Virus record (IMG/VR): IMGVR_UViG_3300043120_000039 | Coordinates: 60,996-124,995 of that record | Origin: a virus | Lineage: Duplodnaviria; Caudoviricetes | DNA: 64,000 bases | Direction: 5' to 3' (one strand) | Part shown: piece after piece, positions 4,820 through 60,500 of the stretch | Layout of the letters: each line of letters opens with the position of its first letter | Position numbering within the stretch: the stretch's first letter is position 1 | Notes under the pieces: model-generated | The model's database searches: none | What the model saw: the letters and a program-made list of their open reading frames with translations, nothing else | What the model was told of the DNA's origin: nothing | Program-made: the position numbers and the translations under genes

Positions 4820-4907
4820 TATAAAATTCCCCATTTAAATATAATTGCAAATCCGCTTCCGTATAATACCTTCTATTGGTTGGTGTCCTACGAGCTTTAA
4901 ATATACT
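4790..4907 (-). pseudogene. remnant of IS607 TnpA N-terminal MerR-like HTH
   Basis: manual translation RRVSIFKARRTPTNRRYYTEADLQ, preceded by a stop; no serine-recombinase domain follows. Confidence 0.65.
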
Positions 4908-4936
4908 AACTCTTCTCTAAAGCGATTACAGAAGCT

Positions 4937-5683
4937 TTAATAGTATTCTCTCAATAGCCAGCAAAGTTGTTCCTCTTCTTCTGTAGAGAGTCGGATTGGT
5001 AAACGCACAAATCCAACCTGTTGCTTCTCACGTTCAAACTTTGCAAGACCTTCTGAGTTTACAACAATCTTACCTAATTTACGATGTGTAAAACTATCTA
5101 AGTCTATAATATTCAATTCTTTATCAACTTTTAATGTAGTCATAATCAATCTCCTTAGTGTATAGTTTTACATGCATCGTAAAGATAATAGTTTCCATTT
5201 GAAGCAATTCCAGCTTCAAGTTCCATTTTAAGATGTTCCAAGCACATGTCAAGATCAAAGTTGCTTAAATATTCTTCATTAAGATTAATGTTGACTTCAA
5301 TAGGGTAATCAAACAATTCAGAATAGAGTACCAGATCTAGACTTTCAAAAATACCAGAAGCATCTTCGTATTCACCAAGCTTGATTTCAACACTAAAACA
5401 TTGTATCTCATTCTTGATACGACCAAGTAGTAAGTAAATTTGTTGCATTTCTTTCATAGGTTAATCCTTATAATTTGGTTAGTTTAGAGTAATTCGGAAA
5501 ACTTCTCCAAGTACACCATTGCTCATCTGGGTAATCTTCATCAGCATACCAATCGAGTGTATCGTAACTTCCAAAACTATTGTCAACATTGCGATAGAAT
5601 ACCACATGGCTTTTAAACTTTCGGTAATGTGTTGCACCTTGTGGTGGATTGTTAATCATCTTAATAAAAGTTTCTTTCTTCAT
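4937..5683 (-). CDS. three small hypothetical genes (4937-5149, 5155-5457, 5468-5683)
   Basis: consecutive ORFs with RBSs downstream of the leftward promoter at ~5.72 kb. Confidence 0.7.
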
Positions 5684-5711
5684 AACTATCTCCTTTTCAA
5701 AATTTACCTTA

Positions 5712-5802
5712 ATCTTAGCAAACAGAATCTTGTTGTCAATAAGTATTTTGTAGAAAATTTATCATAGGTAAAGGTTGACTTTGGTGAGAGAGGTGGTATG
5801 AT
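5712..5802. promoter_or_regulatory. divergent sigma70 promoters at the strand switch
   Basis: minus TTGACA(5734-39)/TAAGAT(5712-17); plus TTGACT(5775-80)/TGnTATGAT(5797-5802). Confidence 0.7.
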
Positions 5803-5811
5803 TGAGGAAAT

Positions 5812-7562
5812 TTGTATATGGAGGGTTTTATGAAGAGGAATAACAAGAGGTTGAAAGCTGCTAAGAGAATTATTCATGAAGAATACATTGATAAGTATGC
5901 TGAAAGAGGTATGTCTAAAAGCAGAATCTACAAAGAAATAAGTTTTAGATTAGGTTATGAATTCCACTGCGCAGATATGACACATGATACAGATTTTGAC
6001 TATGTAGTTAGTGTTGTAAAAAGTGTAATAGAAGATTTACATGTAGAATATATGAGGAATTATTAAGGATAAGATCATGTTGGATGAAAAACAAGCTATT
6101 AAATTTTGGAATAATATTGCAAGAGGTGAGGTTATTGGTTACATTCCAGATTCACAACAGTATCAAGGTGATTATCTAACAAAACCTACATACTTAAGCA
6201 CTATCTGTGATCAATTTGAATTACCTACACTTATTGTGCCTTACACAAGTCACTTTGGTGCTGGATACGGGTGTGCACCAACAAGTCATAAACCTAATAA
6301 AGATGAATGTTACAGAGTTGCTAATTTCTTGAGAAACTTAGCTGACAGTATTGAAAGTGCTGGAGAGTAGTTTATGACCTCAGAAAGATATGATAAGCGT
6401 CACAAAGAATTGTGGAAACTTATGTGCACTTATGATGATGAAGATAACAATAATCATCAAGTAATATCCTACTTCTGCAAGAGAAATCGTGGTGATGCAG
6501 AAGATGTTGGTAAAATAGTCCTAGAGGCTCCTGTGATTGAATATAAGCACCTTTTCAAGACAAGTGAAGCAAGACTACTGCTTAAGAATAAATACTCTCA
6601 GAAACGCTTCTGGGAAGGAAATACACATACTTGCAATGTCATTGCTAATTTAGAACATTATCTAAGGCAGGCAGAAGATGAATGCTGTGGCAAAATATTA
6701 TTGACAAGCGAAGAAATTGCGTCTATTCTTGGAAAGAAATCTAAACGTTGAGGAGAAAACTTAATATGATTAAAACTTATATTACACTTGACAAGGCTAT
6801 TGCAAATGTAGAATACTTTACAACACCAAACAAGAAGGGTAAGACAAAATTAGATACTTGTGAAACAGGATTTACTTGTTATGCAAACAGTTTGCATGTT
6901 GTAAAAGACTATGCTTGTAATGGTAAACTGTCTGTTCCAACACAAGCAGAGAAAGCACAAAAAGTTTTGGATAAATTAGGGGGTAAGTAATGAAGAAGTA
7001 TGAAAATTGTATTGGTTACGTAGAAGGTGTAAATCCTTCACCTACAAACAAAGTAACTTTTAGTATTATTGAACTATTTGGAGAAACACCTGTACATCCA
7101 GATAAGTTTGAAAAGTTGGATCCACGATTAAAGTGGTTCGGCATTTGTAAAGAAAGTAAAAGTTTTTGTGTAGGTTGTGGTACACTTACGCCACATATTC
7201 CTTATGAACATCACACAGAATGTGGACATTATCTATCAAAAGAATATTGTCAAGAAATGGAAGTTTATAAAATTAAATGTATGGGCACTGAAAAGCAACG
7301 TTCCCAGCCACTTAAGGTTGAATTAAAGAGTGGTAAACTTTTGATTTCAATTGGTATTGACAACCTTGCATATGCCGTAAGTCATTCTGATAATTGGAAC
7401 GAAGAAGATAAGATTGTTGATACATATGAGTTTGCAAGAGATATTAAGACTACAATTTCAGATGATGGAGGTGAAGGAACAATTTACCATCTGTTTGATA
7501 TGGCAGCAATTGAAGCAGCAGAACATGGAAGTCTTGGTGTAGAATTTGGAGAGGATAAATAA
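5812..7562 (+). CDS. five hypothetical genes (5812-6066, 6077-6370, 6374-6751, ~6766-6990, 6990-7562)
   Basis: contiguous plus-strand ORFs; no recognisable motif. Confidence 0.65.
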
Positions 7563-7885
7563 TGCCGGCTATTAAATCTGATGGAGGAAGTTCTTCATAT
7601 TACGATATTGAGATTCCAGAGTGGCTATTGGAAAAACTTAATGCACGTAACATGGATGGTAAATGTTTTATCAAAACAGAAGAGATTAATGAAATTTTAG
7701 GTAATGATTTCAATTATTCTACCATTTTCAAGAGTATGGTTCGAGCTATCTCTATTGAGAATGGTATTGGTAAGGCAGGGAATACACATAGTTATGAGTG
7801 CAACAAGGTTCGATATTATATTGACCGTGTAGAAGATAAATTTAACCGAGGTAAATCTAATGCAGAAGAAAAAGATTGCAGTTGA
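7562..7885 (+). CDS. conserved phage protein, DUF3310/SaV-like
   Basis: DGGSSSYY N-terminal motif, F..FK..R..GK....Y...K..YY pattern. Confidence 0.5.
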   Translation: MPAIKSDGGSSSYYDIEIPEWLLEKLNARNMDGKCFIKTEEINEILGNDFNYSTIFKSMVRAISIENGIGKAGNTHSYECNKVRYYIDRVEDKFNRGKSNAEEKDCS

Positions 7886-8462
7886 CATCGACTTAGTTTG
7901 CACAGAAGATTTGGGGAATCGATGGTGGGATTATTTGGTGATGCTTTGGAAAGATCATCTGACAGATGATAATTATTACCAATTCGTCAAGGATTATGAA
8001 AATGGTTGTGCAGAATATAATCTGACAAAATACTTCAATCTACCAGATTATGCAGACCCTATGCTGTTCTGGAAACAAGATAACCTTTATGATGAAGAAC
8101 CTCTTGCAGAAGGTTGTTATGAAGTCGTCAAGAATTTATGGCAAGCAGGTTTTGAGATTTACTTTATTAGTGTAACAGAACCAGCACATATGCAAAGCAA
8201 GAAAGATTACCTTGCACGAAGTTTTGATTTTATGGATAATATCAATTTTGTTGCAACAGATGCTAAGGATTGTATGGATGGTTGTTTTGCAATAGTAGAT
8301 GACCGTCTAGATAATCTTAACGGATTTGAGAATAATGATACTCTTCGAATTTTATTTGACACACCATATAAACAGGATGTAGAATCAACACAAGATTACA
8401 AACTTGCTAAGAATTGGCAGGATGTAGAAGATTTTATTTGCCAGAGAATGGAGGCACTATGA
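7860..8462 (+). CDS. HAD-family 5'(3')-deoxyribonucleotidase
   Basis: IAVDIDLV motif I, IVDDRLDNL motif IV, ILFDTPY. Confidence 0.8.
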   Translation: MQKKKIAVDIDLVCTEDLGNRWWDYLVMLWKDHLTDDNYYQFVKDYENGCAEYNLTKYFNLPDYADPMLFWKQDNLYDEEPLAEGCYEVVKNLWQAGFEIYFISVTEPAHMQSKKDYLARSFDFMDNINFVATDAKDCMDGCFAIVDDRLDNLNGFENNDTLRILFDTPYKQDVESTQDYKLAKNWQDVEDFICQRMEAL

Positions 8463-8628
8463 AACGAGTAATGATTACAGATCCTGTGTATGAAGGTATG
8501 ACTGGAGAAGTGGTATCAGTTTGCACAGATGGACAACATCCTATGGCAAAAATTAAACTTGATGCAGATGGAAGCTTTTTGTTTCTATTTCTAGATGAAT
8601 TTGTTGATATTAAAGAGGAGAATATTTA

Positions 8629-9747
8629 ATGAAAGCACGTACTATTGAGAAAACAATTAAAGAGAAAGTTCTAGATTGGATGAATTCACTTCCTGTAGAA
8701 CTACAAGAATATGTTGGTAGCAAAGTTGTTGTAACAGGTGGGAGTATTGCATCTATGTTCCTAAAAGAACCTGTGAATGACTATGACATCTATTTTAAGA
8801 ATATTAAAGCAGCTATGATGGTAACACGTCATTACTGTCAAGAATGGATTACCAAAAACAATGAAGCTTCCAAAGCAGGCCATGTTAGTAAATCAATTGT
8901 ACCTAAATTACGTCTAACCTTTTCAGAAGATCTAGGTGCGGATAAGAAAGGTAATATTGCAGCAATTTTTACACACAAAGAGTCAAACACTCATTACCCT
9001 AATGGTAAGATGGTAATTCACCCAGAAGATGACGGCCTGAACACACTATTTGATTCTGCAAATTACTGGTCAGAAGTAGAACGTGTTGAAATCTTTATTC
9101 AGAGTGCTGGTATGGTGGGTGAAAACCCCGACGAAGAGTATGACTATTTTGAAAGTTGTGAACCGCAAGCTGCAGAAGATTACATTGATAAAACTATTAT
9201 GTCAGAAGATGCGTTGGAATCTAAATGTGATAAGTACCGCATTGTGTTTATGTCAAGTAATGCTATTACTCTGAGTGACCGTGTTCAACTCGTAATTCGA
9301 TTCTTTGGTGAACCAAGTAAAATTCATGATACATATGACTTTATCCATGCGACAAACTATTGGACAATGAAAGAAGGTCTTGTTACAAACACTAAAGCTC
9401 TTGAAGCTATTCTAGCTAAAGAATTAGTTTACAGTGGAAGTAAATACCCTCTTGCAAGCATCTTCCGTACACGTAAATTCTTGAAACGTGAATGGACTTG
9501 TCATGTAGGTAACTATGTCAAAATGGCAATGCAGTTGAATGATATGGATTTGTGTGACCCAGAAGTTCTTGAAGAACAGTTGACAGGTGTAGATGCTGCA
9601 TACCTACATCAGATTATCCGAGCAGTTAAAGATAAGAAGAAAGATGATCCAACCTTCGAATTTAATTCAACTTACATTTGCACACTAGTAGACCGTATGA
9701 TGGGTGTAACTGGTCAACAACCAGAAGATATTGAGGGTGTTCTATGA
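8629..9747 (+). CDS. Pol-beta-superfamily nucleotidyltransferase
   Basis: VTGGSIAS...VNDYDIYF signature, YDFIH motif. Confidence 0.75.
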   Translation: MKARTIEKTIKEKVLDWMNSLPVELQEYVGSKVVVTGGSIASMFLKEPVNDYDIYFKNIKAAMMVTRHYCQEWITKNNEASKAGHVSKSIVPKLRLTFSEDLGADKKGNIAAIFTHKESNTHYPNGKMVIHPEDDGLNTLFDSANYWSEVERVEIFIQSAGMVGENPDEEYDYFESCEPQAAEDYIDKTIMSEDALESKCDKYRIVFMSSNAITLSDRVQLVIRFFGEPSKIHDTYDFIHATNYWTMKEGLVTNTKALEAILAKELVYSGSKYPLASIFRTRKFLKREWTCHVGNYVKMAMQLNDMDLCDPEVLEEQLTGVDAAYLHQIIRAVKDKKKDDPTFEFNSTYICTLVDRMMGVTGQQPEDIEGVL

Positions 9748-9984
9748 TAACAAAAGAGTTAATCAACAAACTATTTGATGTTTGTGAAAAGTTAGATTTA
9801 GATTTCACAATATTTAATATAGGTCTGCACGAAGATAGTTTAGAAATTTATACTGCCGAGGAACATGATGAGTACCTTTATCATGGGTCTATGGGTGTTG
9901 AAGCTAAGTGTGAATCTGACATAACAGATTTTCTAAGATCAGTACGTGCCCAGAATAAATATTACAAGAATAAGGAGAACAACA

Positions 9985-10671
9985 TTGACTAAAAAAGAAC
10001 TAACATTGGCAGACATTCTAGCCTTTCAAACAAAAGTTATTGATTGGAATCAGATTTTTGGTATTAATCCTGATTCAAAAGAGTATACAGGACTTTATCA
10101 ACAATTGACTTTTGAAGAATGTTTCAAGGAAAACGAGTTAGTAGAATCTATTGAGAAAGGTGATATGGTTGGAGTAGCAGATGCTTTGGCAGACAATCTA
10201 TTCACCTGTCTGCAGTGGGCTGTGCTTGATGGTAAGCCTCTAACGCTTGATGACAAGCAATGGTTTGACAGAGTTGTCAAAGGTAATGACATGAAAACTA
10301 TTGCTCTTGAACAATACAAGGATGCTGTTGTCAATGGTGATTCATATAAAGCACAAACATCACTTTTGCACCTATTAGAAAGCTATTCAGATGTAATTGA
10401 TATTATTGGTGCATTCAATCGTGTGCACGAAAGTAACCTTTCTAAAGCTGTACATGAATCAAAAGATATTGACATTTCTGCAGAGATTGCTAATATTGAA
10501 TCACAAGGTCGATATGGAGATGTAACTTGTGTGAAAAGTGGAGAATATTGGGTATTCAAAGCTGGACAAGATGTGAGAGATGCTGTAGTATTTGATAAAC
10601 CAAAAGTGGTGAAAAGTAGTCACTTCCAAGATGTGAATAATCTTGGTGGATTAGGTCAATTCGTATATTAA
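9985..10671 (+). CDS. MazG/PRA-PH-like NTP pyrophosphohydrolase
   Basis: EE..E..VADALADNLF and F.RVHESNLSK motifs; TTG start after AGGAG. Confidence 0.75.
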   Translation: MTKKELTLADILAFQTKVIDWNQIFGINPDSKEYTGLYQQLTFEECFKENELVESIEKGDMVGVADALADNLFTCLQWAVLDGKPLTLDDKQWFDRVVKGNDMKTIALEQYKDAVVNGDSYKAQTSLLHLLESYSDVIDIIGAFNRVHESNLSKAVHESKDIDISAEIANIESQGRYGDVTCVKSGEYWVFKAGQDVRDAVVFDKPKVVKSSHFQDVNNLGGLGQFVY

Positions 10672-35229: not shown

Positions 35230-37383
35230 ATGGCAATCCCAGTAACACCTGAATATGAAGTGAATGTAGGTAAGAGTAAAGAAAGTCAAGATTTCGGTTT
35301 TCATTTCTCTGCTAAACTTGCACGTACCTTGGCAGAAACTATGTATGATTACAAAGTAGAAGCTGTTGTTCGTGAGTATTCTACCAATATTACAGATAGT
35401 CATACAGATGCGGGTTTTCCTGAGAAAGCTGGTTTTGTGCATGTACCTACAAAATTAAACCCTGTCATCAAGTTCCAAGATTTTGGTATTGGTATGACAA
35501 AAGAAACTATTTTTAAAATCTATACTGTTTTTGGTAAGTCTACAAAAGAACATGACAATACCACGAACGGGTCTTTAGGTTACGGGAGCAAAAGTGCTTT
35601 CTCTGTATCTGAACAATTTACAGTTACTTCTGTTAAAGATAACATTAAAACTGTAGTTGTATGTTATAAAGACCGTAAAGGGCTACCAAAAGCAGATGTA
35701 AAACTTGAAACAAAGACAACCGAAGTCAATGGTACTGTGGTAGAAATTCCCGTTAAATTGTCACAAGTACCTCAATGGCAAGAAGCTTGTGCTCGTGTAC
35801 TAGGTGCTTTCCGTGTCCCACACAATGTTAATACTTTTGGTAATTACCAAGATGAATATGAAGCAATCTTGAATTTGTGTGAACAGGTTCGTGAAGAAGG
35901 TAGTGTATTTGTGCAATCACCATCTTATGAGTTGTGCAACCACCGTTCACGTACACTTGCGCTTATGGGGGATGTTCTTTACCATCTACCAGATTTTGAA
36001 AGTTTGGTGGGTAAGACTAAGATTAAAAACTTAGTTGGAAGTTTTGTTGAAAATGGTATGTATGTCACAAACTTTCATATTGGCGACTTAGACCATGCAC
36101 CTTCTCGTGAAGCTATTAGTTATGACCCACAGACTTTTAACAAGGTTCGTCGTCGTGTTAATGGTGACATTAAGAAAGAGTTCCGTAAGTTTACTAAGGA
36201 CGTTAATTTTGATTTGAGCTTCTATAAATTCTATAAACAGTATCATCGTACTAAAGCATGGATTCTTATGGAAAACTTAGAACTTCCTATTACACGTGGA
36301 CATAAGCTCAGATCGATAGATCCTTCTTCCAAGGGTGGTTGGTGCTACAAACAAATTATGTTCCTACTCAGCGAAGAAAAGTATGGTAAGATTCGTGGCA
36401 TTATTCCATCTACAGTAAACACATTGATGTTTGCTCATAGTGTTGAGTCAATGTACCAAGACCGACTGGTAAAGATTCATAAGCCCATTGTTATCTACTC
36501 AGAAAAAGATAAAGGTTTCTACAAAATTAAAGATACACTTGAGAATGTGAATAAACATTTCGAAGGGCGTCATGTTCTTTCTGCTGAAAGTAAAGAAAAA
36601 GCTGAGAATATTGCAAAATGGTTTGGTTCAGAAGATATTATCTGTGGAGATGAATATTCCCCAGAGAAGAAAGTCCATGTTAAAGGTGAGAAATCTTCTC
36701 GTGGTACCTATGGTATCAAAGAGGATTATGAAACTGTTGCAACCTATATTGAGTTAATGAATGAGGGTTGGGTACAATCTACTGGAAAGGTTAATCTATC
36801 TGAAAAAGGTGTTTATTGGGCAAGTCAAGACTCTATTGTTGTTAATGGTATTGTACCTAAACAGGAAACAACATTCTCTACCTATGGTGCTAATATTTGT
36901 AAAATGCTTAAAGTAGTAGAAGGTACAAAGGTTGTTTTCAAAAATCTTAATAACAAAGGTAAGATTGAACGCTCCGGTATTGAAAAGATTGATGTTGCTG
37001 TGCAAAAGGTTGTTAAGAAACATAAACAAGATTTAGTTAAATATCTCTCGTGGAAGAACAACCCATTTACTAATCTTACCAAGAAAGAAATGGTATTGGT
37101 TGACAACAAGCCTAGTCATGTTAAGATTAAACAACAGATTCAAAATAGAATTAAACCTTGTGAAAAGATTGAACTGATTTCGAGTTTATCAGATTTCCAT
37201 CTGAATAAAACAAAGATGTTTGAAAAACAAGTTAGTATCAAGAAAGCTATGTTTGAGAAAGTTAAACTTGAGGTAGAAAATACAATGAGTAAGCTACCTC
37301 TTACAGATAAGTTTTCAGATTGTTCGCAAAGTGACATTGAAAAATTTAAGTATTACTTAAAACTTGAGAAAGTTATTAAATAA
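35230..37383 (+). CDS. rIIA: rIIA-like protein
   Basis: GHKL motifs REYSTN..DSH, DFGIGM, STK, GSLGYGSKS, PSREAISY; followed by rIIB. Confidence 0.9.
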   Translation: MAIPVTPEYEVNVGKSKESQDFGFHFSAKLARTLAETMYDYKVEAVVREYSTNITDSHTDAGFPEKAGFVHVPTKLNPVIKFQDFGIGMTKETIFKIYTVFGKSTKEHDNTTNGSLGYGSKSAFSVSEQFTVTSVKDNIKTVVVCYKDRKGLPKADVKLETKTTEVNGTVVEIPVKLSQVPQWQEACARVLGAFRVPHNVNTFGNYQDEYEAILNLCEQVREEGSVFVQSPSYELCNHRSRTLALMGDVLYHLPDFESLVGKTKIKNLVGSFVENGMYVTNFHIGDLDHAPSREAISYDPQTFNKVRRRVNGDIKKEFRKFTKDVNFDLSFYKFYKQYHRTKAWILMENLELPITRGHKLRSIDPSSKGGWCYKQIMFLLSEEKYGKIRGIIPSTVNTLMFAHSVESMYQDRLVKIHKPIVIYSEKDKGFYKIKDTLENVNKHFEGRHVLSAESKEKAENIAKWFGSEDIICGDEYSPEKKVHVKGEKSSRGTYGIKEDYETVATYIELMNEGWVQSTGKVNLSEKGVYWASQDSIVVNGIVPKQETTFSTYGANICKMLKVVEGTKVVFKNLNNKGKIERSGIEKIDVAVQKVVKKHKQDLVKYLSWKNNPFTNLTKKEMVLVDNKPSHVKIKQQIQNRIKPCEKIELISSLSDFHLNKTKMFEKQVSIKKAMFEKVKLEVENTMSKLPLTDKFSDCSQSDIEKFKYYLKLEKVIK

Positions 37384-37393
37384 GGAGAAGATT

Positions 37394-38281
37394 ATGTCCA
37401 ATCGTACAAATATTGTAAAATGTAAAACACACCAAGAGAAAGAGATTATATATAAAGGGTGGGAGTGGCAAAATGTCCTTAACAAAACTCAATTTGCAAA
37501 GCAGTATGGTATTTCTGTACGTACTTTAAACCGCATTCTGGATGAATTTAAGGATGATAAAGTTTGCTGTTATGATTACACAGTAACTAAGAATCAGATT
37601 ACCATTTTCTGCAATGAAGATAGTCGTAGTGTTGCTAAAGATTATCCTAAGTTCAAAAGTCTTCGCACTAAGCTTATGGAATCTGATTTCAGTGATGAGG
37701 TTCTTGCAGAAGTATATGAACTTTTGAATCTTCCTAAGTTTGTGGAAAAGTTTAGTGAAGGTAATATCACTGTTGATCATGAAAATGGTAAAGTGTTTTA
37801 TGGTACTTTTGAAATTAAGAATAGTGTTGTTGATCGAATGATGTTGATGCTTGATGGTCGTGAGGACATCAAACCTTTAGTTAAGTTCTTAGAGAAATTA
37901 ATGATGAACCCTAAGACAACAGTAATCGAAGAATTGTATCCCTTCTTGAAACACAATGATATTGAGATTTCAGAAGATGGTGATATTATTGCATATCGTA
38001 GTGTACGTCATGATTGGAAAGATTTCCATACAGGTACAATGGATAACAGTATTGGCACAGTAGTATCAATGCCGCGCACTCTGGTAGATGATGACCCTAA
38101 TCGTACATGTTCAAGCGGTATCCATTGTGCATCTTTTGAATATGCAAGTACTTTTGGTAGTGGTAATTCACATTTGGTGAAGGTACAGGTTTGTCCTTCA
38201 GATGTAGTCTCCGTTCCAACAGATTATAATGGTATGAAATTGCGCGCTTGTAAACTCAAAGTCCTAGAGGAAGTACTATGA
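37394..38281 (+). CDS. rIIB: rIIB-like protein
   Basis: N-terminal HTH, NP...ELY.FL, D.HTG, MPR..VDDDP..TCSSG.H, P.DVVSVP.DY. Confidence 0.9.
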   Translation: MSNRTNIVKCKTHQEKEIIYKGWEWQNVLNKTQFAKQYGISVRTLNRILDEFKDDKVCCYDYTVTKNQITIFCNEDSRSVAKDYPKFKSLRTKLMESDFSDEVLAEVYELLNLPKFVEKFSEGNITVDHENGKVFYGTFEIKNSVVDRMMLMLDGREDIKPLVKFLEKLMMNPKTTVIEELYPFLKHNDIEISEDGDIIAYRSVRHDWKDFHTGTMDNSIGTVVSMPRTLVDDDPNRTCSSGIHCASFEYASTFGSGNSHLVKVQVCPSDVVSVPTDYNGMKLRACKLKVLEEVL

Positions 38282-46694: not shown

Positions 46695-49600
46695 TTAAAA
46701 AATGGATTTGCCTGTATATCGATCTTTATATAGATCACGTCCGTTTGTATCTTTTACCATCATAAACCACCCTTGGTCAGTTTCCTGAAGGTTAGAACAT
46801 TTAAATTTTTCAAAGACCCCTTTCTGTGCGTCTGCCATGTCAAAAAGTATACGGCCGCAATTGTATTTTTTACCATCTAATAACGCCGCTGCTGTGCCTG
46901 TTGCCGTTCCTTCAGTTCTTTTAATTTCGATAGAATCCACTTTAACAAATTTGGCTTTAGTCTTTTTAGCGTTTGGATTAACTTTACGGATGCAAGTATA
47001 ACCATAAACCCCTTTATTGTAAAAATAAGGTACTGTTACATCAGATCCACAACACGTACAAGAATATACTTTACCCATTTTATTCACCTTGGCAATTTTG
47101 CCACTTGTCCAGTAAGAAACTATTCCCTCTGCCGACAAAGTAATAATAGCTAAATTAGACTTTGATTGCAAGCTTTATTAAAAGAAAAATCCCACCCCAA
47201 CTAAGAAGCGGGACTTGTATCACAATTTATCAATAATTTCGTTTAACATCTCGACCACTGCGATCATGCTTCTTTTTATCGCGCTTAGTTTGTTTTGAAT
47301 CTTCCCACTCTGCAAAATTGTACTGTTGTTTATTGCGTGTCTTGGTAAAGTTCATTGATGCATTCATTTTGTTTTCCTTAGAATTAGTATACTTTAGTAA
47401 ATCTTACTTGGTTTAAAAGATTATGCTTTGACCAAATAATCTCTGCTGATAATCCCCTATTAATTTTAGATTTGGTAGCCTTTTCTAGCTTGTTTACCCC
47501 TTGGATTGTTTTATAAAACTCATATAAGCTCACTCGAAATTCTTCTTCAGATAAACTCAAGTCTTCCCAAACATCTGGAGTTATTTCGATAGTATCGCGA
47601 TTCTCTAAGAGATTAACAATTTGGTAAAAAGTGTAAAACTTTTTGAAATCTTGCATGATCTTTTCATCTGGATCATTGCTACCACTTAAGGCATTGAATA
47701 TTTGTTGCTCAATAATTTCTAAAGTTAAGTCATCTAGCTTTTTCCTTTTGGTGATATAATAGCCGAGTAATCGCATGTTGTAACCATTACTCTGCAATGT
47801 AACTATTAAACTGATTTTCAGCATAGGCTTTCATTTGCGACATCTGGATCAATTTGTGCGCCATTAATTCGAACCATTGTTCAATGAACTTTTGCTCGTT
47901 GTTTTCTGTTGTGGTTTTATATTTTCCTTTCTTTATAAGGTCTAACTTGTACCCGATCTCGATGATCTCTACATAGTAAAAAGGGACCGTAATAATTGTA
48001 GGTAAACCTTGCAACCATCCGGCTAGGCGTTTTGTGTAGTTTGGTTCACTACGATCATAGTATTCATTCTCAAAACATTTTAAAACGTATTTACACTTAT
48101 CCGCCACTGTTGAGAATTCTTGATCTGTATAAGATTCAGCATCAATTGAATCATTAACAATTTTGAAAAGCGCTAGTTTGATTTGTTTTTGGTTTGACAT
48201 AGTATGTACCTTTTTCAGTATGTTAAGCTTTATTGCCTATCTATGTAATTAACTATAATCGGGAATTTTCATCAAGTCAAACAAAAATTCCCTGTTATAA
48301 TTAATTTATGACTGTCGTCACTAAATAAATTTTAAACCATTAAAGATCTTACATTTGATAACTTTCCGCTTGATGTGATAGCTATCCCCGAACAAAGTTA
48401 ACCCCATAAAAGAATCATGTTTTATATTTGAGCGTGAAACCGTCTTAAGTTTTCCATTGTGCAGAATAGTGTCGCCTACTTTAATTTGATCCAGTGGCAC
48501 AAGCGTAGGAATAACAAATAAACCTTCGATCATGATTGCTTGCATGTTATGCACCCTTATAAGCTTTTGTTGAACGGCTAGACCAATACGGGGCACCGTG
48601 ACCACCTGCTAAAGCATATTCACCTAATAGGCGTTTTTTCTCTGCTCTGAAGGCTTTATAATCTTTGAAATCTCTAGAATCTAATTGATCGATTGTTTCA
48701 ATTTGCCCGTGTAGTTTTGTATTAAGATGTGCAATTGTCATATTATCACCTTGTTTGCGTTGGTTTATGTTTTCACATTATAAAGCGTTATCTATACAAG
48801 TAAATAGCGCTTTTGTTAATGTGTGAACTTTATCACATTAAAACGGATTAAACCATTTATTATACTGATTTTCTGTGATAACACCATCCTTGCAAAGACT
48901 GTCTGTCCAATCGTTCCAAGCTATGCGTAACATAACGCGATCTTTCCGTGCTTTGCACTCTTTGATAAATTCTGAATTTTCCATCTTGTAAAGTTTAACC
49001 GCTTCGATTTTCGTCATAATATACTCACTTGTCTAAATTGGTTTTTGTTGTTTACGTGTTTAATATTATTTTAATTATGTCGCTATGTCAATAGATATTT
49101 AGAGTATTTTCAAAAGCTTTATATTCTTCTAATTTTCTAGTTTTTCTTGCAACACTATAAACAGTCCTACCATCTATTAGTAAACCATAATACCCCTTGC
49201 CATTTAGATGTACAGTATACCACCGATCTTTAACCTTTGTTAGCTCATAACCCACTACATAAAAGGACGTTGTTTTTGGTTTGCTGGTAAAATTAATCAT
49301 AATCTTAACCTCTTTTAGTTGGAAGCTTTACCGCTTCGATGTGTTCATATTATCAAATAGATTTTATAGTGTGTAATGGTTTGTTTTAGTGACTTTTATT
49401 AATCTTGTTACGCTTTCTAAATTTAAAGGGGTAAGCGCAGAATAATAGCTAGTTGTTACTTCTACAATTTCACTAGTAACATTGTATTTTTTAGATGTAT
49501 TCTCCTTTATTCTTTTAATGTTCTTTCTACAAGCGCTGCATGATGTAACAGTATTTAAAGCTTGTTGCTGTGTAGTACCATCCGCAATCTCTAGGTATAC

Positions 49601-51065
49601 ACTATCGCCGATCTTCATAGATCGCAATAGTTTAGAGATATCTATGCTATTCTTAAAATGTTTTGTAATTGCCATGGTATACCCTTTTAAGGTTTGTTGT
49701 TTGTTGTGTGTAATATAAGGCACATTAAGCCAAAATTCAATGGTAAAGTGCTTATAAGTGCATTTTATGTGATGTTGATCACATTTATATTTTAGGATCG
49801 GATCTCCCCATCCCCTTGGGAACTTGAAAGCGTGTTCAACGTTCGCCCCGTTATTCAATTTGTAAAGTGATTATATACAAGAAAAACGGGACCGACAAGC
49901 GATCCCGATCACATTATTAAAGGAAATTATTACGAACTAAGGATCGTAAGGCTTCAGGCGTTTTTGTTACTTTTAAGGTATCTATAAATTTTTTGACGTC
50001 ATTGTCTAAGTAATGGATAAAATTTTTAGCTGATCCCAAAGGTTTATTAAATACCCGTAAGGCTATAGTCTGATCTTTTCTTGGATCATTGTAAAAAGAT
50101 ATTTCAATATATTTTAATTCAATATCGCAAAATAGATCTAAAATTCTAACGAGTTGTTTTGCCTCTATTGGATTTCGAAAACAAAAATACGTCTCAAGAT
50201 GGGTACCTTCTTTTAATGTATTGATCACCACTTGAGATAGATTGATAAAACCTTTTGAACATTCCATAATATTTAACCTTATTCAAAAGCGACAATTGAC
50301 AAGGTTTGCCGCTAACCTTTGAAGATAGTATAAGGGATCTTGATTTAAGATCAAGTGATTTGTGTCACATTATCAATCATGCATTTTTAACAATGTGAAA
50401 AATGTAGTTAGATCGATATCAAACGAACTACTAACGGTTGTATGTGGGTTCCATTTCCCGATCCGAGTGTATAAACAGATCCGCCCAATACTCATATCCG
50501 ATCCGAATCGTTTAACGTCTTCTAGTCTTGTAGCTTCAAAATACAAGGTAAACTCATTACCTTCTAACTTATAGCGGCCGCTTGAATTTGTGATTTTGTG
50601 GGTATCATATAGATCTAAAATCAAGTTTTCTAGTTCTGTTTTATGATGAAACATTGTTTATTACTCCTTAAGCTTTATATTCAAAATCAATCTGATCAAA
50701 GTCGCCTAGCAATTGCACTTTATATAATGCTTTTGATAAGCCCAGTTTGTGAGCGTGGCTTGCTGGCATTGTACGACGTTCTGGAACGCTTGTTTCGTAT
50801 TCTTGGATGATAACCTTGATCATGTTTATTTTTCCTTAGCAATCATTTTCAGTTGAGAGGATAGCCTACCAATATCACGAAAACAGTGGAACTCTTTTAT
50901 AGTTGCATCTTCAGGGATATTTGATCTCTTTTCAGGGTAGGCGCAAAAAATGCAATCAACTGCATTATCACGATCAATCTTTTTGTCAAATTTCCAGTAC
51001 TCAACTGATCGAATAGGATTCAATACCGTACCAATATTTACTATATTTTGTAGATAATATGCCAT
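46695..51065 (-). CDS. leftward early-type genes, mostly with their own promoters (46695-47078 Zn-finger; 47384-~47776; 47787-48200; 48321-48545; 48547-48741; 49088-49300; 49364-49675; 49917-50267; 50373-50654; 50826-51065)
   Basis: short ORFs, most preceded by near-consensus sigma70 promoters and RBSs; functions unknown. Confidence 0.7.
49790..49863 (-). ncRNA. putative structured small RNA
   Basis: promoter TTGTCG-17-TATAAT (49870-49898) followed by a GC-rich hairpin segment with no credible ORF. Confidence 0.45.
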
Positions 51066-51335
51066 AACTTTAAACCTTTGTTAGTAGTTCCCGTTGGAAT
51101 AACTACACAATAAACAATCTTATCAAGTTGTGCAAGTTGTTTTTACATGGTAAGCGCATTTATACACTTTTAAGCGCCAAAATTGTGCGGAATCTCACAC
51201 TTTTCTGCGCCTTATCCTCCAGGTGGATGCTTTTCACCTGGACAAAGATAAATTTTACTTAAAAGTGTTTGACATCCTGAAACAGTAGTTTTAATCTATA
51301 GGAAAGTTTACCGAACAACAAAGAGGATCGCAGAT

Positions 51336-51536
51336 ATGGAAAAGAAACCATTTAAAACCGGTAGCACATTTTACACCGACAGTAATTTTAACGTCATGAA
51401 ATTTACACGTAAACAAGCTGAGGCTTTAATGCGGACATTTAAACGTAAGCAGGAAGCACGTTTTACAAATGGTTTTAAGTTTAAGCATTGTGAATTAATA
51501 GAAAAACCTGGCTATTTTTGTTACTCTATGAGCTAA
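51336..51536 (+). CDS. small basic hypothetical protein (cassette copy 1)
   Basis: TTGACA promoter at 51269; GAGGA RBS in the duplicated leader. Confidence 0.75.
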   Translation: MEKKPFKTGSTFYTDSNFNVMKFTRKQAEALMRTFKRKQEARFTNGFKFKHCELIEKPGYFCYSMS

Positions 51537-51589
51537 AATTGTGATATAGATCGCTTGCAAACGCGAGCGGTCTCTTTTATACTGTATTC

Positions 51590-51680
51590 AACAAATCAGG
51601 AAATCACTAGCGAAGCCGTTATTGTCGCAGACTTAAGTCTAAATAGGTTGGTAGCTATAAAGAGTGGATGATATTTATAA
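51590..51680 (+). ncRNA. putative small RNA, copy 1
   Basis: promoter TTGCAA-17-TATACT; 24-nt leader shared with 52076; tandem hairpins; no ORF. Confidence 0.5.
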
Positions 51681-51808
51681 ACGTGACTTGAGTCACAAAA
51701 TTAAATATAAAGCTTAAAAGGTATTGTATTTTCATACTTAAAGGATTAATATTCTTATTAAGGTAAACGTTACCTATTAACAAGTGAACAACAAAGAGGA
51801 TCGCATAT

Positions 51809-52027
51809 ATGGCTATCAATATGAACAAACTACTGGATGGCGCGCAAAAGATGGCAGCTAATGCAAAAAATGGTACTTTAAAGCTTAATGGTCATCTATT
51901 TACTTTTGAATTTTGCCAAAAAACTTGGGTTTATAATGTTTATAAAAACGGATTCTATTATATAAACTTTAACACTAAAAGCATTATGCAAGCTAGAAAG
52001 TGGCTAAAAGAGTACGAAAATAGCTAA
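51809..52027 (+). CDS. small basic hypothetical protein (cassette copy 2)
   Basis: promoter TTGTAT-17-TAATAT; same leader/RBS as 51336. Confidence 0.75.
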   Translation: MAINMNKLLDGAQKMAANAKNGTLKLNGHLFTFEFCQKTWVYNVYKNGFYYINFNTKSIMQARKWLKEYENS

Positions 52028-52080
52028 AATTGTGATCAAAGTCACTTGCTTTTATTGGCGAGTGGCTTTATAATATATTC

Positions 52081-52175
52081 AACAAATCAGGAAATCACTT
52101 GCGGTTAGCCATTAGCTCGCGAATCTTACAAGTTAAGATCAAGGTTTTGCAGGAACCAACCGATCCCGCCATTTA
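52081..52175 (+). ncRNA. putative small RNA, copy 2
   Basis: promoter TTGCTT-17-TATAAT; same leader and similar hairpin layout; no ORF. Confidence 0.5.
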
Positions 52176-52589
52176 TTAATAACAATATTATCAAATAATA
52201 ATGATTTTCATTCCACAAAGTAAATAATTCTCACACTCATTATCATTATCCCAAATTTTCACGATTGCTAAAGATCATTTTCCAATCTGATACAAATTTT
52301 TAGAGAAACACGATTGGTCAAGATAATTCTTTCGTCGTGTGCAATTGCGTTTACTTGAAATCAAATCGACGTCCTTTCAAAAGTAAAATGCTTGAGATAA
52401 TTTTCGTCCCCTGTTTCAAAATTTTCTACTTTGCTAAGAATAATCTTTTCAATCGTTTCTAAAAATTACGATTGGAAGAAATAATTTATTGATTAAGAGT
52501 AAAGTTTGTTTGAGAATGGTTTAAATCGTTCGTGTATGGCTTTGTGAGAAGATTTATGATATTATTTGATGAAGTGTATTGCTTAAAAG

Positions 52590-52610
52590 AAAAGCCGCTC
52601 AGAGGCGGCT
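52590..52610 (-). terminator. intrinsic terminator ending the leftward block
   Basis: AGCCGC-CTCTGA-GCGGCT then TTTCTTTT on the minus strand. Confidence 0.8.
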
Positions 52611-52638
52611 ATAGGAGTCTTACGTACATTAATAACTA

Positions 52639-54889
52639 TCAACTATAATCCCATTTGTTAGGATCAATCTTCAACTTATTCCAAGAGTTGTTGCTATGAT
52701 ACCAGATGAAAGTATCCTCTGGAACATCCAACCTCCACTGACGTACTGTATCACATTGGTCTAAAGCATGACAAATACCCCAAGCTGCATTACCATCAGC
52801 AACAACACATTCTAAAGTTTTACGTTCAAATTCATCGTACCATAGGATTTTAATAAGCATATAGACCTCTCACAAACTTCTCAAATGTTCATAAAGCTCT
52901 TTACCTTTCTCGGTAAGCTTCACCATATTATTCTGAACTTTTACACCATCAGATTGACTCTTATCACGCTGAAGTTTTACTTGTTCAACAAGTTTAGCAT
53001 TCTTAGCAGAAGTAAAAGAACTATCTGCAACATCAATATGTTTTAATTCAAGAAAATCATAAACCTTCTCACCATTTGGCATCTCAATTACACGGTGCAG
53101 GTGCCAATCATGTAACTTAATCATATCTTCCATACTGATATATTTGGTGTGCCATGTACTCATATCAATAGTTTGGAAACCTTGACACAAACGTTCAGAA
53201 CTAACTGGAACATAACCTAATGTTTGTGCAAATTCAATTAAACTTTTAATCTGCAAATCTTTTGTATCAATCATCTTAAATTCTGTCATTGTTGTTCTCC
53301 TTAATTACAACAAGATTCTGTCTCAACCCAACTAAACTGACTTAATCTTCTCACACATAACCTTTCTTGTCAACATAGAAATCTAGGTCTGTTGAAATTA
53401 ATTTTTACTTCGTTTTCAAAATTTTATATTAACTCTGCAAGAGCTTCTTCCGCAAACTCTTTTGTGATTAAGTCGTAACGTAGTGCTTCATAAATCACTT
53501 CACGTTTTGCACGAGTAATCTCAACATTACTATGTTTTAGAATATTATCTTTGATTTCATACTGGATAGCACCTAGACTAGATTCACTCCCCTCAAACAC
53601 AGCTTCCACCCAATGCAGTGGGTATTTAATCTGCGAATCAGAGTCACAAATTTCATCATAAGAATCTTCGTAGCTAAAATGAACTGTGATTGAATTATCT
53701 TCCAGATCAATCCAGTGTTCTTGATAGGTTTCGTTGTAACCAAGCTCATAAGGATTATTCACATAATCTATTCCTTCAAAGTATTCTGGATTATCCTCAG
53801 TGAAGTTGCTACACATAGCTCCTAGTGTATTTAATGTTTCAGATAGTTCTTCTTTATAAGCTTGATATTGTTTTTCTAATTCTAAAAATGTCATTTTATT
53901 CTCCTATTGGAAACTTTTCTGGATACTCCCTCATATACCATTCAGCACACTCTTTGTTATCTATAAGTAAATCTTCATAAGAATCGAACTCATAATAAGC
54001 AAACTCTGCACCACAACATGTTGACATCAACCAATCAACTTTATCCGAGACTGGTAAAGTATCATAATTATCAGGAAAAGCGTTTTCAATAAAGTACTCC
54101 TGTTCAAACTCCTCCATAGGATTATTTTGACAATAGTTCTCAGCCTCTGACTTTCTCACTTTACAACTTGTGCAAACATAAGAATCTAACATATCAAAAA
54201 TCATATTGATATCTGTGGTTGTTAATTCAAACCCTTTTGATGAAAGTTTTATTAATTTATAGTATTTGCTCATATCTAATAACTCCACTCATAAAAATCA
54301 TTAGCCAACCAATCATGTATATAAAGATCTTCACATTCTTCATTACAACATTTATAAATTTCACCAGTTTGCTGGCCTGAATAAGCCCTTGGGGAATCAT
54401 AATTGCTATAAGTAGTATCATGTAGCAACATTTCACTACCACAAGATGGGCATAATTTACTCATAGTTTTTCTTCTCCAACAATATCTGTGATTTGTTCT
54501 TGGTGGCGCTGTGTTTTGAGCTTAGCTTGTTCATATGCATCAAAGAAAGATTGTTTTCTTTCAGATTTAGACATATCAGATGAAAAACTATAACCTAGTT
54601 CTGATTCACGAAACTTGATCTCTGGTTCTGGATTGTCAATCAGCCACTGACCTCTATCTTCCTCTGATATCAAACCTGAATCTACTCTAAGATTCTTCTG
54701 AATATATTTCAGGTTCCAGCTCAGGTATTCAGACGTATATTTCATATGAACACCATCTACATCTTCACCAGAAATGTAGATAAGTTGTGAAGGGTCATCA
54801 ATCTGTTGTGCACGAGAGATTAGTACGCCCTGAACTTCTTCCTTTTGAAAGAATTGGTCTAGATTGTCTGCAGCTTTATCTTTATTCAT
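52639..54889 (-). CDS. six hypothetical genes (52639-52860, 52870-53289, 53424-53894 very acidic, 53896-54273, 54276-54464 Zn-finger, 54461-54889)
   Basis: contiguous minus-strand ORFs. Confidence 0.65.
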
Positions 54890-57569: not shown

Positions 57570-60500
57570 TTAATCTCCCTCTTTCAAATAGTCTACGTAA
57601 TTAACAACAAAGTTATCTAGGTAATTATCTACTTGATCCAAAATGATGTCAATAGTTTCAAGTGGAATATTTTGTGTTGTAATAACCATACCTTCTTTAA
57701 CAGACTTCATTACTTTTGTTAACATCTCTTGATTATCAAGAATAAATTGTTCTACTTCTGACATAACACCTCCTGTTCATCAACTCTCTAATCCACGGCA
57801 ATCATCACCGTAAATTGTACTCTTTCCAAACTACCTTAATCCCAAAATGTATCAAGATGTTTAGCAATCAATCCAAAGCAATATTCTTTGTCGTACTTAC
57901 GACGAGCATCTTGATATTTATAATCTAAGTAAACAATCTCATCTTTGTAAATAGGAGAATCCTTTTGTTTAGGAATAATTCTATTACGATTGTTGAAAAC
58001 TTCACAAGGCTTATCATATTCACTATCACGAATGCGCTTCAGAAGCTCTGTAATCAACTTTAGCTTCTTACCAGTGTCATTACTGCGTACAAGATTTCCA
58101 TGCTTGCTGTGCATCTTAGAGGCGTTCTCTGTCCACAGAATCATTGCATCTAATAGATATTCTTGGTCATACCAAGGAAATTGTTTATGAAACTGCTTGC
58201 TGAATTTCTTTTTCATGGTTAAACACCTTTAACAAAGTCAAACTCTTGAGTTCCAAATTCAAACATACCTACTGTTTTCAAATCATACAGGGCTTCTTGG
58301 CAGATAAAGTATGCAACACGTTCTTCAAACTTAGGGTTCCATTCATAATTAAGACTACTAACAAAGAAATCCTCTGCAATCATTGACAGAAGAGAAGGAA
58401 GGTTAAAATTTACACCATTCTCTTTTGCTTTAGCAATCTTAGGTAGTAGATAGTTTGTTGCATTAAGTAAAGTTTCATGTGTATGTTTCATAAATATTCT
58501 CCTTGAATATTATTGGTTATAGTACAAGAGTAACACAGACGAGGTTTTTGTCAACATACATTTCCAAAATCAACCCCTCCTTTCACCCAAAGTTCACTTC
58601 GACTAACTGTAATCTGATTTACATGATATTGCAAGTTAAATACATCAAGCCACTCTGTCAATTCAACCATATCCCTGTATGAATCAATAGTATAAATTGT
58701 ATAGTCGTCTTGTTGTCTTATTGATGTGAACATTACTTAATCCTTGCAAAATGCACATAACGTTTTGACATAGTTGTCAAGACCACTTCATGACCACGAA
58801 ATTTGATTTTACCAGATTCAACATCACACTTAAAGTCATGATAGTTATTAATATTATGCAAATCATAATATGTATCATGATCCATGTAAAGTATGAACTC
58901 AACCTCACTAGGGTCAGTTTCACCCATTTGACAAGCCATATTATAAGCTTTATCCATTTCAGAGTAAATGTAGTGGATTAAAGTGTTGAGGTGTTGCTCT
59001 TCAAAACTGTCACTACTTCTGAAAACTGGACGTTCTGTAGTTTGAAACTTCACTGGACGATTAATACGTTGACAAAATTCACTGTTTGCAAAAGCAAGTT
59101 GCTTTTCAAGGTAATCTACCTTCCGTTGTAAACGTGCAACCTTTTTAGTTTTACTCATAATCACCCCAACCAAATTCGTTCTGTTCAATCCTGTAATTCC
59201 ATTCATTAACCAAAACCTGATTAATCTTAGCAGGGTAACCTTTCAATGTAAAGTAACATAGACTCTCTAAATGACCATCCTCTAAATCTTTTAGTGCAAT
59301 GTATTCTGTTTGAGGAAGTTTCTTACCATTCTTGTCAAAATTTCGTCCCCAGATAAACTCTTCTCGAATCTTTTCATGAGGATCATCTGTGTATAGTGAT
59401 AAGTCCTCAAACTCAAGATCAGAATACCCTATTCGTTGATATTGTGTTCCTCCATCAATAAAGTATTCTCGTCCATCTTCTTGAATATGTTGTTTGAAAT
59501 CATGTTGGTGTGTAGATTGTAATACTGTTCCATCGGGACAACGGATTTTATTCACCAAAAGTTCTCTTTGTTTATATTCCTTAGGTATTTCGTAGTCATC
59601 CATAAAACCTCCTATAACCTTCTGTAATCAATTTAAATTAATCATAAGGTAATCTATCACATTTGTCAATAAAACCTTGTGATAAGCCTTACAATTTGTT
59701 TAAACGTTATAATATCAGCCTTTCTCAAATAGTTTTATATTTCACAGATTATTCTTCTACAATTTCAAAATCTGCATAAATAAATTTGTAATTAGGTTTA
59801 ACACTATCACCTTTTACACCAATACGCAACAATTCTTCACCAAGAATATACGCACCTTGCAGACCTTTGTGTTCAAACAATTCTGCTTCGACAATAGCGT
59901 TGTCATAATTAACATTTTTCCAAGCACCATAAGGTTCTGTTTCTGCGGAGGATTTGGGTAATAGTTTAATTTTAGTCATAACTGTAAGTTACCCCCATAG
60001 ACTTTGTTATAAAGTTTGTGATATTCTTTCCAACCACTTTCCGCATAGCGATTACGGTTCTCTAGAACCTCTCTGAGACGTTTTAACTCTTTGAGCATAA
60101 GTTGGTTACCTTGCAGACGAACACGCTCTCTGGCTTGTTGTAGGGCTGATTTTAGACGTAAGTTGTCAATAACTTCTGAACCACTATAACCATTCTCTGT
60201 AAAGCCGTCAAACACTTGATCCATGACATGCTTAATAATGGTGTCTTCACATGACAAACGTTCTGCTAGTTCAAGTTTAAAATCATAAGAGGTATTATCA
60301 AAGATATCTAGTACATCTAGAATTACTTCCCCGTTTGCGTTAATTGTTGGTTTAATCATAGTTATTCTCCTTGCTGGTATTCGTTCATCAGAAACTTCAA
60401 AATCTCTTTACTACCATCGTCCAATTGGTTAATCTTAACCACAAGGTCTACCATTCTTTCTGCTGCATAAAAGTTGATATTATTGAACGCCGTTTTGATT

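Follow-up and report, generated by a model that had tools for sequence, protein, structure and literature searches.

The stretch of DNA analysed here, hereafter the window, is 64,000 nucleotides long and consists of bases 60,996–124,995 of one virus record of 124,995 bp; G+C content is ~34%. This report concerns an island of small genes within it, at about 47100–52100, whose predicted promoters carry palindromic boxes of the form TGTGA-N6-TCACA. The island sequence (47100–52100) matched exclusively Vibrio phages, with the best match to vB_VibM_10AMN (85.7% identity over 22% of the query) and the next to ~60 ICP1 isolates (~80% identity over 16%). By these matches, the record is an ICP1-like Vibrio myophage, of which the window is the second half. 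The island comprises 13 small leftward open reading frames (ORFs; 46695–51065) and, beyond a divergent region, two rightward ones that are also small (51336–52027). A promoter and hairpin scan assigned an individual sigma-70-type promoter to most of these genes, and an individual terminator-like hairpin to several. Promoters and transcription starts are predicted throughout, from the scan combined with a reading of the sequence, and start codons were chosen from the ORF lists.

Boxes were scored by their number of mismatches to TGTGA-N6-TCACA. At up to two mismatches, the whole window contains 47 matches where 47.6 are expected, so two-mismatch boxes prove nothing alone; they were retained only where orthologues or promoter architecture back them (48307, 49898, and 51540). 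Twelve of the 47 fall in 47209–52046. With at most one mismatch, 12 matches were found in the 124,995-bp genome, six of them within the 3.2 kb of 48822–52046, and the genome's only two perfect boxes, 48822 and 49768, are both in the island. The ten island boxes are made up of two perfect ones, four with one mismatch, and four with two. Dinucleotide shuffles of 47100–52100 gave an expectation of 0.157 matches with at most one mismatch, compared with the six seen, and none of 2000 shuffles reached six (maximum 3). Perfect boxes were expected 0.0035 times and seen twice (0/2000 shuffles reached two), while at up to two mismatches the expectation was 2.39 ± 1.52 against 12 seen (0/1000 reached 12; maximum 8). 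When the whole genome was shuffled 200 times, the densest 5 kb held at most five matches with at most one mismatch (mean 2.0), compared with six observed. A first-pass annotation of this DNA had listed ten boxes, with 48822 and 49768 as perfect, and had named a whole-genome scan against shuffled sequence as a check; all ten boxes were found where it had placed them, and the scan with shuffles bears out the enrichment of the island.

The boxes are also distinguished by where they lie. Among the six matches with at most one mismatch outside the island, four are inside ORFs of at least 125 amino acids (aa), one is over a stop codon, and one is intergenic, while the corresponding island boxes are all in non-coding DNA, given the chosen start codons. 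Across the 119 promoter-like sites predicted in the genome with a simple matrix, a box with up to two mismatches was observed upstream of four of the seven in the island versus three of the 112 elsewhere. The association of boxes with promoters is specific to the island. We also observed a one-mismatch box outside the island at 59678–59693, with a TGTAA half-site, centred at about -51.5 of the genome's strongest predicted promoter (TTGACA-17-TATGAT).

To the level of individual positions, the boxes look like sites for CRP bound to cyclic AMP (cAMP). Seventy island boxes from seven phages were analysed; they had been chosen at no more than one mismatch, and the informative features are therefore the non-core columns and the placement of the mismatches. 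It was observed that 38 of the 49 mismatches fall at the first T of TGTGA. Position 6, directly after TGTGA, is C in 45% and T in 36% of the boxes (pyrimidine in 81%), the box centre favours T8 (57%) and A9 (57%), and the flanks are A/T-rich, with an A preceding TGTGA in 49%. The derived consensus, wwaTGTGAYnTAnRTCACAtww, equals the 22-bp CRP consensus. CRP sites of the TGTGA-N6-TCACA form have been mapped in Vibrio cholerae, the host of relatives of this phage, and in a comparison by eye the boxes resemble the best sites from CRP chromatin immunoprecipitation sequencing listed in PMC6050953. The analysis supports the view that the boxes are a real, strongly enriched, and conserved palindrome that would be bound by a protein, and that their core and secondary preferences are, on sequence grounds, indistinguishable from the cAMP-CRP consensus.

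The ten boxes of the window were placed relative to their predicted promoters by taking the first base of the -10 element as -12, so that the -10 spans -12 to -7. Four units are class II-type: their boxes have the form TGTGA-N6-TC(A/G)CT, and the final T of each box also serves as the opening T of the -35 TTG. On the leftward strand, box 49898..49913 (two mismatches; TGTGATCGGGATCGCT in promoter orientation) is centred at -42.5 and fused to the -35 of TTGTCG-17-TATAAT (49898..49870), with the upstream gene's hairpin, 49907..49887, nested inside. This box and a 10-nt flank are also present in 10AMN and ICP1, and its counterpart in qdvp001 retains the TGTGA and TCACT half-sites with a changed hairpin sequence. 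Box 50354..50369 (one mismatch; TGTGACACAAATCACT in promoter orientation) is centred at -41.5 and fused to the leftward TTGATC-16-TATACT (50354..50327), which serves ORF 49917..50267; the ICP1 orthologue retains both half-sites and has a different N6. On the rightward strand, box 51540..51555 (two mismatches; TGTGATATAGATCGCT) is centred at -42.5 and fused to TTGCAA-17-TATACT (51555..51583), and a terminator-like hairpin at 51548–51573 (+) is nested inside this module. Box 52031..52046 (one mismatch; TGTGATCAAAGTCACT) is likewise centred at -42.5 on the + strand and fused to TTGCTT-17-TATAAT (52046..52074). Its module is a duplicate of the 51540 module, with ~23 identical nt after the -10 in both, and a near-identical counterpart of the promoter was found in ICP1 (L002:7072). 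There is no + strand ORF of at least 45 aa over the ~550 bp downstream of this promoter (52075–52640), so it may drive a non-coding RNA.

The nesting of terminators in these units was seen as a pattern of its own. In the class II-type units 49898 and 51540 (from the scan) and 52031 (52038–52069 (+), by eye), the upstream gene's terminator hairpin lies between the box and the -10, and the T-run of the nested terminator extends into the -10. Across relatives, the nested stems covary and the box half-sites stay constant (qdvp001, L005:7204; HNL01, L006:7604).

The other six boxes lie further upstream of their promoters. Perfect box 48822..48837 (TGTGAACTTTATCACA) is centred at -59.5 of the leftward TTTACT-16-TATAAT (48804..48777), for ORF 48547..48741, and perfect box 49768..49783 (TGTGATGTTGATCACA) at -70.5 of the leftward TTGAAT-17-TATATT (49740..49712), for ORF 49364..49675. 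Box 48307..48322 is degenerate, with two mismatches, and is centred at -69.5 of the leftward TTGACT-17-TATAGT (48280..48252). In an alignment of five orthologous promoters, no change is seen in its GTGA or TCA, and each phage has a different N6; its orthologues in four relatives have no more than one mismatch, and the 49-nt spacing is kept in three of them, with 50 nt in VnaP. Box 51682..51697 (one mismatch; CGTGACTTGAGTCACA) is centred at -69.5 of the rightward TTGTAT-17-TAATAT (51724..51752), a weak promoter (score just 4.2) upstream of ORF 51809..52027. In the divergent intergenic region, box 51184..51199 (one mismatch) is centred at -91.5 of the leftward TTGCAC-17-TATTGT (51135..51107) and at -112.5 of the rightward TTGACA-17-TAATCT (51269..51297); for the leftward promoter, the orthologues in 10AMN, ICP1, and PWH3a-P1 have the box at -71.5, exactly 20 bp, or two helical turns, nearer. 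Box 47209..47224 (two mismatches; TGTGATACAAGTCCCG in promoter orientation) has a single intact half-site, is centred at about -80.5 of the leftward promoter 47171..47143 (TTGCAA-17-TATTAT), and overlaps a terminator-like hairpin at 47216..47187. The VnaP orthologue of its promoter (L003:663) has a class II box in its place.

Taken over the island, 10 or 11 of ~12 predicted promoters have an upstream box, and none has a box downstream of the -35. A strong promoter at 49063..49091 on the - strand (TTGACA-17-TAATAT), upstream of ORF 48838..49017, has no box, its best upstream match having three mismatches. The window boxes are supported by sequence as lying at class II-like and class I-like positions of what are predicted sigma-70 promoters.

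To see how far the arrangement extends, we surveyed 12 related records taken from the match lists, which are a non-random sample, together with two unrelated cholera phages, scoring the pattern at no more than one mismatch. A box cluster was found in the orthologous small-gene island of all ten surveyed relatives that infect Vibrio or Aliivibrio. Given as matches in the cluster over matches in the whole record, the figures are 14/19 in ICP1 (seven perfect; within the 6.3 kb of 4335–10606), 11/18 in 10AMN, 13/18 in VnaP, 10/14 in PWH3a-P1, 12/18 in HNL01, whose host is Aliivibrio fischeri, 8/17 in vB_CoeS_P1, 14/17 in eugene 12A10 (eight perfect), 9/18 in 1.193.O, and 19/23 in K412. In qdvp001, a partial record, the cluster holds five plus three of 16 matches, the three being at the record end. 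No cluster was found in the two Pseudoalteromonas-infecting relatives, J2-1 (four matches) and HM1 (six), where a reversed-pattern control gave 16 and 11, nor in the unrelated V. cholerae phages ICP2 (two matches) and ICP3 (none). Vibriophage DNA does not in general have the cluster. Between orthologous promoters, single boxes have been gained or lost, and where orthologous boxes are present, the half-sites never change, while each phage has its own N6 spacer. The first-pass annotation had described the boxes as matching the cAMP-CRP consensus at -41.5/-42.5, -59.5, -69.5/-70.5, -80.5, and -91.5 and had looked to related phages for conservation; its positions relative to the predicted -10 elements were reproduced, the 70 boxes agree with it in core and secondary preferences, and the survey of Vibrionaceae-infecting relatives found the conservation.

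A side observation in HNL01 concerns how such modules may spread. Its boxes at 2433, 3391, and 3693, and those at 6697, 7250, and 8141, belong to two families of longer repeated promoter cassettes, each consisting of a box plus ~45 nt and nearly identical within the family. These repeats suggest duplication of whole promoter modules.

We then compared promoter geometry across phages by pairing each box with the sigma-70 promoter that scored best downstream of it, with approximate weights, and computing the box centre as -(20.5 + d), where d is the distance from box to -10. This gave 35 well-scored box-promoter pairs from seven phages, many of them orthologous and hence non-independent, so the periodicity is descriptive only. 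Eight pairs have d of 21–22 nt (centre -41.5/-42.5), six have 32–33 nt (-52.5/-53.5), two have 39–40 nt (-59.5/-60.5), 11 have 49–51 nt (-69.5 to -71.5), five have 59–60 nt (-79.5/-80.5), two have 68–70 nt (-88.5/-90.5), and one has 92 nt (-112.5). The spacing shows helical periodicity, with R = 0.80 at 9.5 bp, 0.71 at 10 bp, and 0.45 at 10.5 bp. The class II spacing of 21–22 nt was found in at least 14 promoters across the seven phages, four of them in the window. PMC6050953 gives -41.5 and -61.5 as the centres of sites from which CRP activates. Phased spacing of the kind seen here is the behaviour expected of an activator that would contact RNA polymerase while bound to a single DNA face.

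A search for a phage protein that might read the boxes returned little. The cyclic nucleotide monophosphate (cNMP)-binding domain PF00027 had no match in the whole genome, and the Crp-type helix-turn-helix (HTH) families PF13545 and PF00325 had sub-threshold matches only (17.7 and 16.5 bits), in ORFs of 61 and 306 aa. By these searches, the phage encodes no CRP-family protein. The 306-aa ORF lies at 37361–38281 of the window. The 61-aa ORF lies outside it (G000 2842–3027, +), and its first 22 residues match the Crp-type HTH at 17.9 bits, with a cut-off of 27. With tblastn, relatives of the 61-aa ORF were found in eight phage records, including vB_CoeS_P1, eugene 12A10, and Pseudoalteromonas phage HM1, where it lies upstream of the RNase H and primase genes, while no match was obtained in ICP1, 10AMN, VnaP, PWH3a-P1, qdvp001, or HNL01, all of which bear boxes. 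Since these six relatives have the boxes but no detectable copy of the ORF, the two are not conserved together, and the ORF was rejected as a binder common to all.

Our preferred reading of the island is that host cAMP-CRP probably binds the boxes and boosts early promoters. The island genes would be transcribed from individual promoters by the host sigma-70 RNA polymerase, and nearly every one of these promoters would have its CRP site on the same helical face, either fused to the -35 (-41.5/-42.5, class II) or one to five turns upstream (~-60, -70, -80, -90, class I). Bound CRP would recruit RNA polymerase and so raise the strength of the early promoters right after DNA injection, which would help the injected genome to compete for RNA polymerase. 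Early expression would thereby be tied to a cAMP-replete, nutrient-limited host. The sequences show the motif, with its enrichment, its conservation, and its placement at predicted promoters; we infer CRP as the binder, activation as its effect, the early timing, and the physiological meaning. The genes are called early because of their size, the type of their promoters, and the description of ICP1 early genes by RNA sequencing (PMC7567579); in that study, ICP1 early genes are mostly short, of unknown function, and peak at 4 min. The ICP1 orthologues of the island genes are approximately ORF7–ORF27 of HQ641347. Because near-consensus sites are combined with good -35 and -10 hexamers, CRP would more likely boost or tune expression than gate it, and strong near-consensus sites would respond only weakly to changes in cAMP. 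The first-pass annotation had proposed that the phage couples its first-expressed genes to host carbon status, and this expectation of tuning weakens the idea of such a gate without removing it. A broader version is a tentative possibility, namely that the whole immediate-early set may be built on cAMP-CRP, which would gate or tune the first minutes of infection, with replicated sites later draining CRP from the host regulon.

Several observations weigh against an activating role for host CRP. The record derives from metagenomes, and a look-up of sequencing runs for this DNA listed no RNA or ChIP runs. ICP2 and ICP3 share a host species and yet have no cluster, so the trait belongs to the phage lineage as much as to the host, and the absence from Pseudoalteromonas phages could equally be a lineage effect. 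If the hosts of those phages lacked CRP, the absence would be telling; the 2005 genome paper of Medigue et al. reportedly describes P. haloplanktis as a host without the cAMP-CAP system, a point on which literature searches returned nothing. Among the ten boxes, 47209 is the weakest and a doubtful member, with one intact half-site. Six of the 35 well-scored promoters, all in relatives, have the box at the non-canonical -52.5/-53.5, from which CRP is not known to activate in the E. coli spacing studies. Moreover, the upstream boxes are 1–3 bp nearer than the canonical -61.5, -71.5, -82.5, and -92.5, and the best-fitting period is 9.5–10 bp, not 10.5. The promoters also keep a good -35 (TTGnnn) and -10, and may not need an activator. 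A 2012 review, in which ICP1 is equated with JSF4, reports that mutations in cyaA and crp change susceptibility to vibriophages in step with adsorption, and credits the effect to adsorption and not to phage transcription (PMC3545932). Lastly, a conserved binder outside the CRP family, encoded by the phage or borne by the virion, is possible.

Such a binder would be a dimeric protein, either an early product or a component of the virion, that reads the palindrome and either shuts off early promoters or activates delayed-early ones, and the likeness to CRP sites would then be coincidence or mimicry. We consider it unlikely. It would suit a cluster that is confined to one phage lineage and absent from ICP2, ICP3, and Qingdaovirus relatives, as well as the -52.5/-53.5 boxes, which misfit canonical CRP activation, and the genome offers numerous small proteins whose function is unknown, with two or more weak HTH candidates. 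However, neither a cNMP-binding domain nor an above-threshold Crp-type HTH was found in the genome, its best candidate, the 61-aa ORF, is undetectable in the six box-bearing relatives named above, and agreement with CRP sites in both pentamers, the 6-bp spacer, and the secondary preferences would be improbable for an unrelated protein. A factor for the very first promoters would need co-injection with the DNA. Furthermore, every window box either precedes the -35 or is joined to it, and none covers the -10 or the start, which is the geometry of activator sites rather than operators. The same placement bears on the idea that host CRP does bind, and either represses or times the early promoters or is held by the sites as by a sponge, shutting down CRP-dependent host functions. 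This is quite unlikely in our estimation, even though repression has a precedent in T1, in which cAMP-CRP represses phage promoters (PMC6737242), each class II box shares one base with a good -35, and the -52.5 class is at a position that is not known to be activating. A sponge would be consistent with sites that match the consensus better than most of the chromosomal V. cholerae sites listed in PMC6050953 and that number 6 to 19 per genome; once replicated, they could rival the cellular CRP pool. Nonetheless, no window box covers a -10 or predicted start, and helical phasing over five turns with a strict class II spacing of 21–22 nt points to contact with RNA polymerase, which a sponge does not need. 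A pure sponge would have no need either for placement in the promoters of one island only.

The remaining alternative dispenses with a protein: the palindromes could be structural elements of RNA or DNA, such as 3' hairpins or terminators, or the product of chance and base composition. Most boxes do start 0–5 nt past the upstream gene's stop codon, terminator-like hairpins overlap boxes 49898 and 51540 and, by eye, 52031, and the count at up to two mismatches equals chance over the whole window. Against this, the sequence of the arms is itself fixed in 70 sites, and the mismatches are one-sided and uncompensated, with 38 of 49 at the outermost position, which excludes RNA hairpins as the explanation. 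The stems of the overlapping terminators covary while the half-sites are fixed (L005:7204 and L006:7604), the arms are just 5–6 bp long with no T-run seen by eye after the boxes, and the enrichment is far above that of shuffles. Boxes as intrinsic terminators or RNA hairpins were accordingly rejected, the true hairpins being separate, overlapping elements, and we regard structure or chance as highly improbable.

If the boxes are CRP sites, they can be compared with known promoters. E. coli galP1 is a class II CRP-dependent promoter with its site at -41.5, and the class II-type units of the phage resemble such promoters in having a 16-bp core 21–22 nt upstream of the -10 that overlaps the -35 (-41.5/-42.5), and in a degenerate promoter-proximal half-site (TCACT or TCGCT). 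They differ in that box and -35 share a base, the opening T of a well-kept TTG, leaving a core that is not obviously defective, in the upstream terminator nested between box and -10, and in their context, which would be the early-type genes of a virulent phage. Class I promoters, such as lac P1 (-61.5) and malT (-70.5), are resembled by boxes on one helical face at ~-60, -70, -80, and -90, although the phage boxes are 1–3 bp nearer and relatives have the extra -52.5/-53.5 class. In T4, early promoters rely on the strength of core and UP element, and MotA boxes replace the -35 of middle promoters and are read by the phage protein MotA with AsiA. The island boxes would be akin to T4 upstream elements as extra DNA that helps phage promoters to out-compete those of the host for RNA polymerase; unlike them, they are palindromic, match the site of a host activator, and lie at distances that vary but keep helical phase. 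The nearest published case that we found is phage T1, where cAMP-CRP represses the pir, dam, and recE promoters (PMC6737242). The likeness is that a host CRP acts directly at promoters of a phage usually taken to be virulent, which links development to sugar uptake. In T1, however, CRP represses a few promoters of regulatory or late function, whereas here an island of ~12 promoters has near-consensus sites in activator geometry, an arrangement kept across a Vibrionaceae myophage family. Literature searches on CRP sites in early promoters of ICP1 or lytic phages returned no account of such an array, and a paper on OrbA offered nothing on where orbA lies or on its promoter.

Among the lytic phages of epidemic Vibrio cholerae, ICP1 is dominant, and a 2021 review states that little is known of how it controls its expression programme (PMC9040626). 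An array of CRP sites on early promoters would provide a concrete and directly testable mechanism of control. If activation by host CRP is correct, cAMP level (glucose versus chitin or starvation) and crp/cya genotype would alter early phage transcription independently of adsorption, and the island would be a clear case of a virulent phage launching its infection via a global host activator, beyond core promoter strength or factors of its own. This would bear on phage ecology in nutrient-poor seawater and on the use of phages against vibrios. Were the immediate-early set as a whole built on CRP, host nutrition would directly determine the infection success of the main cholera phage and its marine relatives.

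The genes of the island are themselves poorly characterised. The leftward array on the - strand, taken from the ORF lists, comprises 13 ORFs of 45–146 aa (46695..51065): 46695..47078, 47230..47367, 47384..47824, 47787..48200, 48321..48545, 48547..48741, 48838..49017, 49088..49300, 49364..49675, 49917..50267 (phrog_11687), 50373..50654, 50668..50823 (DUF7170), and 50826..51065. The rightward ORFs on the + strand are 51336..51536 (66 aa) and 51809..52027 (72 aa), with near-identical leaders and a box-plus-promoter module after each. Apart from DUF7170, a Pfam search of the leftward-array proteins matched no family. PHROGs of unknown function were matched for three ORFs of this array, and Pfam and PHROGs together identified no DNA-binding family among the island proteins.

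Finally, some further features of the non-coding DNA were observed. A non-coding segment of ~85 nt at 49784–49869 (-), between the class II promoter of box 49898 and the next box, is conserved in five relatives and could be a leader or a small RNA. RNAalifold gave it a weak structure (-7.1 kcal/mol, one compensatory pair), and Rfam at the gathering threshold had no matches in the whole window. The 8-mer TAAAGCTT occurs 26 times genome-wide on both strands, compared with ~9 expected from base composition, with island copies at 47170, 48225, 49114, 49323, 50670 (-), and 51708 (+), several of which are intergenic. The leaders of both rightward ORFs (51300–51335 and 51775–51808) share the string GAACAACAAAGAGGATCGCA immediately before the ATG, and the same leader was also found in four relatives, ICP1 and qdvp001 among them.

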